A DNA stretch of 63,739 bases, counting the filler, from Neolecta irregularis DAH-3 (Eukaryota), in assembly GCA_001929475.1 (NCBI GenBank). It is 13 parts of 13 records of this genome, joined end to end, with 100 filler letters (N's around TTAATTAATTAA, not from the genome) between each part and the next. Parts side by side here need not be neighbours in the genome. Positions count along the whole stretch, not along the records: positions 16,550 to 23,601 come from LXFE01003272.1; 12 more parts are not named here. One strand, given 5' to 3'. The notes beneath the pieces were generated by a model that saw only the letters and a program-made list of their open reading frames with translations, made no database searches and was not told the origin of the DNA. Position numbers and translations under genes: made by a program. This document shows, in pieces, positions 16,450 through 20,263 of this stretch (position 1 is the stretch's first letter; each line of letters starts with the position of its first letter).

Positions 16450-16549
16450 NNNNNNNNNNNNNNNNNNNNNNNNNNNNNNNNNNNNNNNNNNNNTTAATTA
16501 ATTAANNNNNNNNNNNNNNNNNNNNNNNNNNNNNNNNNNNNNNNNNNNN

Positions 16550-18018
16550 CGAGATAGAAAACTTAAGGGAGCCATTAAATCAATCAATCGAGCTTTGCTA
16601 ACGACTATCGGCGCGTGCGGTGATGTTGCAAGGAATGTATGCTTGACTAGTACACCTCATCCGCTACACTCTGAAATACTCGAGTTTGCTACAAGATTGA
16701 GCAAGCATCTAGAGCCTGCGACTTCAGCATACCACGAAATTTGGCTTACAGATGATTCTGGAAAAAAGCAACAAGTTGCTGGAAATGCTGTCGTCGACAT
16801 GGAGCCTCTCTACGGACCTACTTATCTTCCGAGAAAATTTAAATTGGGCATTGCTATTCCGCCATCGAACGATGTCGATGTTTACACCAATGACGTTGGA
16901 TTTATTGCCATTGTCCGTGATGGTAACCTTTCTGGTTTTAATGTTACAATTGGGGGTGGAATGGGCATGACCCATAACAACATGAAGACTTATCCGAGGC
17001 TTGGAGATTTGATTGGATTCGTTAGTCCAGATCAAGCAATCGACGTTGCCGAAAAAATTATGCTCGTTCAGAGAGACCATGGAGATCGAAAAAATCGGAA
17101 ACATGCTCGCTTAAAATACACTATCGATGACCACGGCGTCGAGTGGTTTGTAAAGGAGGTCGAGAAGAGGTTAAATTATGACCTTAAGCCTGCTCAACCC
17201 TTCTCCTTTGATAGCAATGTTGATAAATTCGGATGGCGGAGAACGGAGGATGGAAAATATCATTTCTGCATGTTTATCGAGAATGGTCGAGTTTGTGACG
17301 AAGCCAGATTCAGTATGAAAGCTGGTCTCAGAGAAATTGCTTCATACTTTCAACACGACGAGGAATTTCGGTTTCGACTGACTGCAAATCAGCACCTCTA
17401 TCTATGTAATATATCTGAGGGTAAGTTAGTTGATGTAAAAAATCTGCTGGCAAAATGGGCGCTCGATAATCTGGCACACTCGGGGTTGAGGTTGAGCAGT
17501 TCAAGTTGTGGTACGTTAATTTGAATGTTCACACCTGAAGTGTTAGTTGCTCTTCCAACCTGTGGTCTTGCGATGGCGGAAAGTGAGCGATACCTCCCGC
17601 TATTAGTTTCAAAAGTCGAAAATATTCTCGAAGAGGAGGGACTGCGTCACGATTCAATTGTTATGCGTATGACGGGATGTCCGAATGGGTACAATATTCT
17701 TTGTTCTATTTCTTATCCCTCTAATGAATAAGCTGTGCACGTCCGTGGGTTGCTGAAATAGCATTCGTTGGCAAAGCACCTGATACATATAATATGTATC
17801 TTGGTGGTGGTTACTATGGGCAGCGACTGAACAAATTGTTCAAGGCCTCAATCTCGGAAGAACAGATTCTCGAGTCGTTAAAGCCACTCATCAAAAAATA
17901 CGCAACTGAACGCAAATATGGCGAGAGATTCGGGGATTGGACAATTAGGGCTGGAGTGATCCAGGCGACTTTGAACGGACAGGATTTCCACAATGGTGTA
18001 GCAGAAGATGAGGAATGA
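16550..18018 (+). CDS. MET5: Sulfite reductase beta (siroheme) subunit, 5' end lost in gap
   Basis: [55 protein letters not shown]; introns 17511-17546 and 17689-17732. Confidence 0.96.
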
Positions 18019-18048: not shown

Positions 18049-20263
18049 TTAGTCAGTACTGCCATGAGGAATGCTTCCATCTTGTTCCAACAAATGCATG
18101 ATCATTTTGGTGTGAAACCATTTCTTTTCAGGCGTAGTCCACCACGTGACTACCGCCAATATGGTCACCCCAATAAAGATGACCGGACAGTAGTTAAAGG
18201 TACCCGTTGTAATGGGAAAGAAAACAGGAGAGCAAAGAACACAACACATGAATGTGGAATATACAAATGCAATGATGCGAAATGGCATGGAAAATCTTCC
18301 TAGAGACCATCGTGGACTTTTGAAAGATGTTGGTGTAATGAATGCTCGACCGACTGAAAAATTAGCTGCGTTGCTTTTCCGCATAAAAATGAGTATTACA
18401 TGCAATGAGAGCCCAACAAGCAAATGTTGGCATTCCTGCGGCAGACACGAGGCTATTAAATGCGACGGGACTAGCCAAAACTGTGACAAGTAAAATAGAT
18501 CCTACTGCCCATATAACGTAGATTGCATTTCGAGGCTGTCCGTTTGGTGCGACTTGGCGGATGTAACCAGAAAACGGCAGGATTCCATCTCGGGCAATTG
18601 CATAGACCAATCGGGATGCAGCAACGGTAGATACAGCTCCGTTCTGGGAGTTAGATATGATGTAATGACATGGATTACAAAGATGATGGCAATCATAATA
18701 ATGACGTTCATAGCAATATGTCCATGTTGACCTAGAGCAAGTGCATAGAACTGAACCATTGGTTGTGGAGAATTGAGACCAAATAATCGATCAAGTGAAG
18801 GCTGAACAGTTACTTTAGGGAAGAACTATGAAACATACGGTGCAGAAAAGCAGAAGCATAACAAATGGAAAACCGAGGAGACAACTCATAAATGCACTCC
18901 ACCAGATACCACGTGCAGCGATGAGACTCTAAAAGGTCATTGGAGATCATGCGACTAGAGAACATACAGCATTATGCGTTTCCTCGGCTATATGACCAGA
19001 AGCATCGAAACCCACAAGGGAACCGCCCACAGCAAAGAAACTCAACAACCAATTCCACACAGGTGGGGCTCCGGTTCCATTAAACGTTTTGGTGAAGACA
19101 AACTTTGCGTTTTGGAAGCCATACGTTCGAGAAACCCCAATCGGTAGCCATATTACATTAAGGAAGAAGTCAAGCATGATTAAGGCCGTAGCTCCGCGGA
19201 AAATCAACTTGTAGCGACCAGGTGAGATCAAATTGAGTCCTATCATGATTGCAAGAATCAATTCTGCTCCAGCCCAAACTGCCATTCGAAATTTGAGGTC
19301 GTTTGGGTCGTGAGGGAACGATTCGTCGTTGAAAATAGCGAGTTCCTATTCAATGAGTATACAAATTATTGTAAGAGGCATACGGAAAGTGCGAAATACA
19401 TGACAACTTGGGCAAGACTCGCGACAAATGTCGCCCATGCGGTAGTAGACCCTGGTATCTGAGCATCATTGACACTTGGTTCATACACCAAGCAGCTAAG
19501 AAACCAAACAGTCGACCGTATTTTAAGCCTCCCACAGATGCTGCCCAGCTGCAACGTTAGCAATTAAAAACCAATGACAGAAAGCTCACAAATAGGTAGA
19601 CCCAGCAACAGGTAACGCTGAACATATCTCCGCGAGCACTGCGGCGGTAATCAAAGTCATAATCGCAACGATAACATATGTCGACCTATCATCAGCTTCT
19701 TTTTCTGGAATTCCTGAGAACCAGTATGCGGCAGGACCTCCGGCAGAAACGCCAATACTGAACAAAACTCGAAGGCCGGAAAAGACATAGACTGCAGCTA
19801 ATGATAAGCGATGTGACGCGTTTAGACATACCGAAGCTAGCAGCGAAACTTTCAATTAGGCCGAAAGCACGCTTCAGAGTCTCTTGATAAGTTTTCAATC
19901 TAAAAGGCGACTATACCGGGATGTAGCCTAGCACGTGCTTGAAAGAAAGTCAGCTCACACTCCAACGCACAACGCAAAAGAAAACAACGACAAATCCTTT
20001 CGCACGCATTATCGTGTATCAAGTTCAATGGGTATAATCTCAGCCTCTTCAGAAGCACCCCAATGTCATTGCTTTTTATAGCGTTGTTTGAAGGGCAAAC
20101 CTGATGATGAAGAGCTAATACTTGCAAGGCAAGAAAGAAAGAATTGACGGTATCACTCCGCAAAAGATCTTACCAGTTGACGCTCATCCTCGTCAGGAAT
20201 TGGCAGTGCTTTGAGGGTGGTTGGGAGCATCTTGACGTTGTTTTTCACAAGGACAGAATCCAT
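18049..20263 (-). CDS. APC-superfamily (ACT-type) permease, probable Thi9-like thiamine transporter
   Basis: Spliced start MDSV...DEDERQL/HVLGYIP/TLKRAFGLIESFAASF; GGPAAYW, LAEICSALPVAGS, GFDASGHIAEET, YAIARDGILPFS, F.LGRFS. Thiamine specificity inferred from the intronic TPP aptamer. Confidence 0.9.
19984..20072 (-). promoter_or_regulatory. TPP (thi-box) riboswitch in intron 1 (20173-19938)
   Basis: Minus strand gcaatgacattggggtgcttctgaagaggctgagattatacccattgaacttgatacacgataatgcgtgcgaaaggatttgtcgttgt: P1 gcaatgaca/tgtcgttgt, P2 gggt/accc, P3 gcttc/gaggc, UGAGA motif, P4 cttga/aaagg, P5 cacg-AUAAUG-cgtg, GCG. Confidence 0.95.

Follow-up and report, generated by a model that had tools for sequence, protein, structure and literature searches.

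A 63.7-kilobase (kb) window of the genome of Neolecta irregularis DAH-3 (assembly GCA_001929475.1; the window is the whole stretch of DNA that was analysed, 63,739 nucleotides (nt), and all coordinates are positions in it) contains, on its minus strand, a gene for an APC-family permease, probably a transporter of thiamine, whose first intron holds a thiamine pyrophosphate (TPP) riboswitch of the THI9 class. The reading that we consider likely is that TPP promotes retention of this intron and thereby exposes the message to a premature stop codon. At low TPP, the whole 236-nt intron would be removed, from the donor at 20173 to the acceptor at 19938, and a permease of 533 amino acids (aa) would be made. 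At high TPP, the ligand-bound aptamer would lower the productive use of the distal donor and the intron would be kept, while perhaps a minor share of the messages would use one of the inner donors, 20100 or 19970, instead. Both the retained and the inner-donor forms would read into a TGA at 20155-20153 after 36 codons and give no permease, and these unproductive messages would probably be degraded by nonsense-mediated decay.

The aptamer

Intron 1 holds a genuine TPP riboswitch aptamer, for which TPP binding is predicted from sequence and structure. When the whole window was searched on both strands, RF00059 was the sole Rfam match at or above the gathering score, with 62.6 bits (gathering score 54.3), an E-value of 6.4e-10 and an alignment that covers positions 1-105 of the 105 in the model. 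The match lies at 19977-20072 on the minus strand. The cmscan alignment gives a short P3 of 5 base pairs (bp) with a 4-nt loop, the optional second hairpin being deleted, and a P5 of CACG/CGUG pairs that carry no non-canonical flag. The conserved CUGAGA junction and the P4-P5 arm are present, and all highly conserved consensus positions are matched, both here and in the paralogous sequence L001 described below. Folded alone, an 87-nt segment adopts P1, P2-P3 and P4-P5. In the folds of the window sequence P1 is extended to 12 bp (20075-20064 with 19992-19981, minus strand) and encloses the aptamer, spanning 19981-20075 in all. The extended P1 of L001 has 15 bp with one mismatch, and the consensus fold of the two sequences shows one compensatory pair in the extension.

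The original prediction, made from the sequence alone, had proposed a complete TPP aptamer at this place with a compact P3 and a CACG/CGUG P5, and each of these features was recovered, the first by a score above the gathering threshold and by the isolated P1-P5 fold, the other two in the alignment. All the sequence elements that it had listed were likewise found on the minus strand where they are placed in this text.

The host gene and its corrected model

Judged by its sequence and its homologues, the host gene is an APC-family permease gene of 12 exons encoding 533 aa. Exon 1 (20174-20263, minus strand, as for all features of the gene) starts with the first ATG of the open frame, at 20263, and comprises 30 codons that end in phase 0 with ...GAG CGT CAA CTG. 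It is followed by the riboswitch intron, intron 1 (19938-20173; 236 nt, phase 0, after codon 30; GTAAGA ... CTGAC ... AAG), by exon 2 (19917-19937), a constitutive micro-exon of 21 nt that encodes HVLGYIP and aligns without gaps with the homologues (...LGYKQTL...), and by intron 2 (19881-19916; 36 nt, GTATAG ... CTTATCAAGAG), which must be spliced out, since otherwise the in-frame TAG at 19913-19911 is reached. Exons 3-12 occupy 18049-19880 and are separated by nine more introns of 34-46 nt; in the gene model intron 3 ends in cattag at 19798, and the stop codon of the gene ends at 18049. The 20174/19937 join recovers the conserved N-terminus ...DEDERQL/HVLGY..., and five homologues align gap-free with the 12-exon model across the N-terminal region. 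The choice of the exon 2/intron 2 structure was guided by the N-termini of homologues (Saitoella, ...DDDELLLRRLGYKQTLVR...). A first gene model with the acceptor at 19911 also keeps the frame open, but it was dropped because a 21-nt exon 2 with a 36-nt intron fits the homologues gap-free.

At 236 nt, intron 1 is 5-7 times longer than the ten other introns of the gene, and the setting of short introns against which the original prediction had seen it is borne out for this gene, where those ten measure 34-46 nt.

Four exons were scanned against Pfam, and one of them matches AA_permease_2 (5.2e-14) and AA_permease (8.9e-11), the other three giving no match; among the homologues found, all carry a precomputed PF13520 annotation and most carry PF00324. 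A protein that NCBI and UniRef list as 'Thiamine transporter thi9 [Neolecta irregularis DAH-3]' is the best match and agrees with exon 7 at 100% identity, and a paralogue from the same organism, 77% identical, bears the name 'Thiamine transporter thi9' as well. The proposed APC permease is thus upheld by the Pfam match and by relatives named thi9, and the further proposal that it imports thiamine is probably correct. The public protein record of the gene (P0001, compared with 18049-19685) is a fragment of 357 aa whose first residue is an internal Met of the fifth exon and whose end is read from the last intron; it lacks the first four exons, and the riboswitch has therefore gone unannotated.

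The donor of intron 2, GTATAG, is unusual. Intron 2 is missing from the paralogue L001 and was therefore gained or lost after the duplication. A non-consensus donor, GTTCTC, also stands at the head of the 36-nt intron at 19686-19721 (minus strand), which has to be assumed in order to match the homologues (...AAYW/STYV...); if it were retained, 12 residues would be added without truncation, its length being a multiple of three with no in-frame stop.

A paralogous transcript and the conservation of the aptamer

From one metagenome scan, a contig of 1922 nt was obtained, L001, which has a 40-nt leader and an exon 1 ending in ...GAG CGT CAA TTG. Between exon 1 and exon 2 it carries intron 1 whole, 226 nt long and with a TPP aptamer of 65.6 bits, while the rest of its coding sequence is free of introns. 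The protein that it encodes is 72% identical to that of the window gene and 89% identical to P0003, the model publicly available for the N. irregularis paralogue. P0003 itself contains three local model errors, which coincide with intron positions of the window gene, and its N-terminus (MRAKGFV...), like that of the JGI protein P0002 (VRKDLSL...), is the translated 3' half of the aptamer. From these sequence relationships, L001 is best read as a transcript of the orthologue of the P0003 paralogue from which all introns have been removed except the riboswitch intron; it is taken as RNA-derived because the downstream introns are missing. The cluster of L001 at 90% identity comprises four proteins and three contigs (1974, 1922 and 1735 nt). 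In all three contigs intron-1 sequence lies within the reading frame and in none is the spliced form seen, L001 being the one of the three for which retention of the whole intron was checked at the DNA level.

Selection was gauged from two sequences, the window gene and L001. Their aptamer cores are identical at 79 of 87 positions (90.8%), as against 41.8% identity at fourfold sites (n = 201), and the intron flanks, with 45 of 97 identical positions in the upstream part and 20 of 39 in the other, stand at about the neutral level. By this comparison strong purifying selection acts on the aptamer of either paralogue, and the flanks are close to neutral. Within the flanks a few islands are conserved, namely GTTTGC in a GUUUG...CAAAC hairpin, the long P1, the segment GTRCGT and the branch motif.

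These figures bear on the idea that the aptamer is a relic, so that nothing is regulated and a long intron is merely spliced slowly. The retention seen in L001 could indeed reflect the slow removal of an unusually long intron, and the pairings tested below gave no switch helix. A relic, however, would have decayed to the level of the flanks (46-51%), whereas the core has kept 90.8% identity against some 42% at neutral sites and matches all highly conserved consensus positions; this explanation is extremely improbable.

Splice sites and the products of their use

The productive donor, GU1, reads ctg/GTAAGA (20168-20173) and is identified by its sequence and by the 20174/19937 join. The seventh codon of the intron is the in-frame TGA at 20153-20155, and further downstream come a pyrimidine tract (20124-20143) followed by AAG at 20123-20121, a 20-nt segment (20101-20120) that begins TAT TAG in frame, and a candidate inner donor, GU2, which reads cag/GTTTGC (at 20100) and sits inside a small hairpin GUUUG-N5-CAAAC (20086-20100). 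Beyond the aptamer lie GU3, a donor-like GTGCGT (19965-19970) whose distance of 33 nt from the acceptor is close to the usual length of an intron in this gene, then a branch-like CTGAC (19949-19953) whose branch A is 12 nt from the intron end, and finally the 3' splice site AAG (19938-19940), followed by C at 19937.

In the isoform translations, VRSFAE-stop results whether the intron is retained or spliced from the donor at 20100 or at 19970, the stop being the TGA at 20155-20153, and inclusion of the 20-nt segment as a cassette reads ...ERQLY-stop; the equivalent non-productive forms of L001 stop at a TAA at 170-172. Since a stop is reached within seven codons of the intron in all forms that are unspliced or only partly spliced, control of splicing is the only sensible output of the riboswitch, and since all alternatives stop early, failure to use the distal donor would switch the gene off.

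The original prediction had seen the expression platform in the 20-nt segment, with TPP promoting the inclusion of 20120-20101 as a poison cassette, bounded on one side by the AAG at 20121, taken as an acceptor with the pyrimidine tract before it, and on the other by the 20100 donor. The more general part of that proposal, the control of splicing, agrees with the finding that all non-productive forms stop, but the cassette itself is not supported. Its described sequence elements are present and its inclusion does give a stop, and L001 may have a counterpart, in which a TTTAT/TCTAT branch-like motif and tgag precede a 12-nt segment starting with TAA in frame and then GTTTGC. A stop-carrying extra exon under riboswitch control is reportedly found in Chlamydomonas THIC. 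Yet inclusion would require the 53-nt upstream piece to be spliced as an intron although no branch-like motif comes closer to the acceptor than 32 nt and no A closer than 23 nt, whereas in 11 of 11 introns of the gene the last such motif stands 3-14 nt before the end of the intron. Moreover, the segment differs between the paralogues in length (20 and 12 nt) and in sequence and is not alignable with L001, it would presumably call for definition of a 20-nt exon where introns look to be the recognised unit, and the cassette form occurs in none of the three related transcript contigs. We therefore regard the cassette as very unlikely.

The inner donor can also be accommodated without a cassette, in the manner of Neurospora NMT1 or of the published Type III layout: TPP would shift splicing from 20173 to the GTTTGC at 20100, and 73 nt containing the TGA would stay in the messenger RNA. 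For such a choice of donors speaks the spacing between GTTTGC and the aptamer, which is kept in both paralogues amid near-neutral sequence, GTTTGC starting 28 nt upstream of the Rfam match in the window and 29 nt upstream in L001. Each paralogue also has an in-frame stop between its two donors, here the TGA at 20155-20153 and in L001 the TAA at 170-172, between donors at 119 and 182, and a weak donor, GTTCTC, is already used by the gene in its 36-nt intron at 19721. The hairpin around the inner donor has five invariant pairs in the consensus fold and shows no covariation; taken alone it is weak (-4.4 kcal/mol, z -0.24). Against donor choice, L001 and its cluster mates show retention, and the inner-donor product appears in 0 of 3 contigs. 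Use of the 20100 donor, which the original prediction had held in reserve, is thus possible in view of the conserved position of GTTTGC and of its agreement with the published Type III model, while the three related contigs show no use of it; as an account of the switch it is the main rival of intron retention, which is preferred, and we rate it unlikely.

The search for a switch pairing

About 14 pairings between elements of the intron were evaluated in the window sequence and in L001, each against 1000 shuffles, and the counts given here are the numbers of shuffles that did as well. Pairing of the P4-P5 strand with the inner donor, as in NMT1, was at chance level (124/1000 in the window, 326/1000 in L001); this complementarity defines the NMT1 type, and its lack of distinction is a further point against donor choice. 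The best partners of the inner donor differ between the two sequences, and in L001 the aptamer is outside the top five. Chance level was also found for the alpha-alpha' pairing of the NCU01977 type, between the 3' shoulder of P1 and the first-donor region (505/1000 and 540/1000), for an 'anti-P1' helix between the pyrimidine tract and the 5' shoulder of P1 (288/1000 and 359/1000) and for the pyrimidine tract with the P4-P5 3' strand (411/1000 and 305/1000). Pairing of the P5-P4 3' strand with the 3' splice site is strong in the window (-15.3 kcal/mol, 8/1000) but is not shared by L001 (261/1000), and a long outer helix from 20100 to 19953 in the window fold is absent from the L001 fold. A helix between GU1 and the pyrimidine tract forms in both minimum-energy folds and includes one apparent compensatory change, A-U versus C-G at donor position +4, but it does not exceed chance (76/1000 and 157/1000).

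A sequence CUUUUGCG...GGAGUG follows the first donor (20151-20166, minus strand) and recurs, interrupted, after P1 (19955-19981). The copies form a direct repeat, not a complement, and could therefore compete for one partner.

Of the signals shared by the two sequences, the best comes from GTRCGT, which pairs with the 3' splice site (56/1000 in the window, 1/1000 in L001), a pairing found in both local folds. It suggests another arrangement, in which the last 33-34 nt of the intron (GTGCGT at 19970 ... CTGAC ... AAG at 19938) are themselves an intron of normal size, drawn into a donor-acceptor hairpin with the branch site in the loop, and the riboswitch sets whether the distal donor, the proximal donor or no donor reaches the acceptor. 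GTRCGT stands 33 and 34 nt before the acceptor in the two sequences (in L001 as GTACGT, at 311-316), and the P0003 gene model is spliced at the point equivalent to GU3. In both sequences, too, an AUG within the aptamer, in the P5 loop at 20009-20007 (275-277 in L001), is in frame with exon 2 through GTRCGT, by way of 39 and 36 nt, respectively, and it is at this AUG that P0003 starts. On the other side, an in-frame ATG is expected by chance in about 1 of 9 cases and this one lies behind several upstream AUGs; 56/1000 is weak given the number of pairings tried; and in stability the local hairpins do not surpass dinucleotide shuffles of the stretch concerned (z -0.61 in the window, +0.52 in L001). 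In the minimum-energy fold of L001 the hairpin coexists with P1, so that no ligand dependence follows from it, and L001 keeps the mini-intron, its proximal donor being unused there. We hold a riboswitch acting on this terminal mini-intron to be highly improbable.

A related conception starts from the normal intron length of about 33-46 nt and treats the riboswitch intron as a distal productive donor, an aptamer and a mini-intron of 33-34 nt, with TPP deciding whether the distal donor captures the acceptor, an organization unlike the Neurospora and Candida types. It is doubtful, and we put little weight on it; if it were true, the 'off' splice of the mini-intron could yield a permease whose N-terminal tail is a different one, started at the AUG of the aptamer.

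Comparison with known fungal riboswitches

The riboswitch is a further case of the fungal THI9 kind already described. Riboswitches are reported for the Thi9 orthologues of other Taphrinomycotina, Pezizomycotina and basidiomycetes (Donovan et al. 2018, PMC5997356, citing Moldovan et al. 2018; also PMC8786325), and those of the THI9 class are said there to 'remain to be experimentally characterized' (Donovan et al. 2018, PMC5997356). As in that class, the host here is an APC permease named thi9, and the aptamer is intronic, on the sense strand and near the 5' end. A riboswitch class of amino-acid transporters has also been described by Mukherjee et al. (2018, PMC5882874), who report it absent from Ascomycota; the present case, by contrast, comes from Neolecta, an ascomycete. 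A literature search for TPP riboswitches combined with Neolecta found none; Moldovan et al. 2018 and the supplements of all these papers were outside that search, and an earlier listing there is possible.

In layout, the closest published models are Type III and DUR31. According to the description of Type III (PMC5882874), an internal intron of 200-400 nt has two donors before the aptamer, an in-frame stop between them and the acceptor after the aptamer. All four features are present here, in an intron of 236 nt whose Rfam match ends at 19977, before the acceptor at 19938, and this agreement of length and layout is a point for donor choice. The inner donor here, however, is a candidate, known as a conserved GTTTGC, and the Type III model is itself a prediction, called not experimentally observed by its authors (PMC5882874), which counts against that choice. 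In Candida parapsilosis DUR31, as reported by Donovan et al. (PMC5997356), thiamin raises the level of unspliced RNA, and a second, non-consensus donor is used regardless of thiamin. The intron described there resembles ours in being a coding intron near the 5' end with a consensus first donor, an in-frame stop, a non-consensus second donor, an aptamer and a single acceptor; it differs in lying in the gene of a sodium:solute symporter, not an APC permease, and in its length of 351 nt versus 236 nt. That the second donor is not regulated by thiamin in this one tested case of the layout (PMC5997356) argues further against donor choice. The unspliced form is the thiamin-induced product of DUR31, and the retained intron of L001 matches it. 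Retention is favoured for the Neolecta gene because L001 keeps intron 1 whole, as in the unspliced output of DUR31.

The Neurospora crassa riboswitches, as described by Li and Breaker (2013, PMC3597705), are more distant. Those of NMT1 and THI4 are likewise fungal OFF switches of splicing with the aptamer between the inner donor and the acceptor, but they reside in introns of the 5' untranslated region and act through upstream open reading frames (PMC3597705), and without TPP their inner donor is base-paired with the P4-P5 strand (PMC3597705), a complementarity that here is at chance level. NCU01977 (PMC3597705) is similar in that its riboswitch intron lies between coding exons of a transporter gene and only the first donor is productive. 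Its switch, however, requires an intron of about 600 nt or longer and base pairing of the P1 3' shoulder with an alpha element close to the first donor (PMC3597705), and no such complementarity is found here.

Evidence that weighs against retention

Several considerations weigh against TPP-promoted retention of intron 1 in this gene. Among the roughly 14 pairings tested on two sequences, no alternative helix joining the aptamer to a splice site exceeds chance in both, so that none of them accounts for the physical switch or settles the expression platform. A P1 of 12-15 bp would, to judge from the folds, be stable without ligand, which argues against a switch based on P1. On the side of RNA, the support comes from L001, a paralogue from a related organism whose thiamine status is not on record, and the RNA origin of L001 is deduced from its missing introns, not given by the record. 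Assemblies favour dominant forms and may miss minor inner-donor or cassette isoforms. Finally, orthology of the permease to Schizosaccharomyces pombe Thi9 would follow from source names and the literature. With these points taken into account, TPP-promoted intron retention in the THI9-class riboswitch is still the explanation that we think likely.

Genomic surroundings

Downstream of the permease gene, a convergent gene on the plus strand (16502-18018) appears, by eye from its stop-to-stop translation, to encode a protein like the haemoprotein subunit of sulfite/nitrite reductase, and no more than about 30 nt separate its 3' end from the stop codon of the permease. Between 4721 and 62210 the window contains 1086 N at 28 places, mostly as paired runs of 44 N spaced 12 bases apart, together with three runs of 10 N; several of the runs are flanked by regions of higher G+C content (0.52-0.60).

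Significance

The finding leaves the general knowledge of riboswitch biology unchanged. Neolecta, which represents an early-diverging lineage of the ascomycetes, gains from it a riboswitch missing from the annotation and a corrected model of the permease gene with 12 exons, and both THI9 paralogues of Neolecta have kept the aptamer under strong selection. With its compact 236 nt, the intron could help to dissect how a riboswitch intron in a coding region enforces retention.

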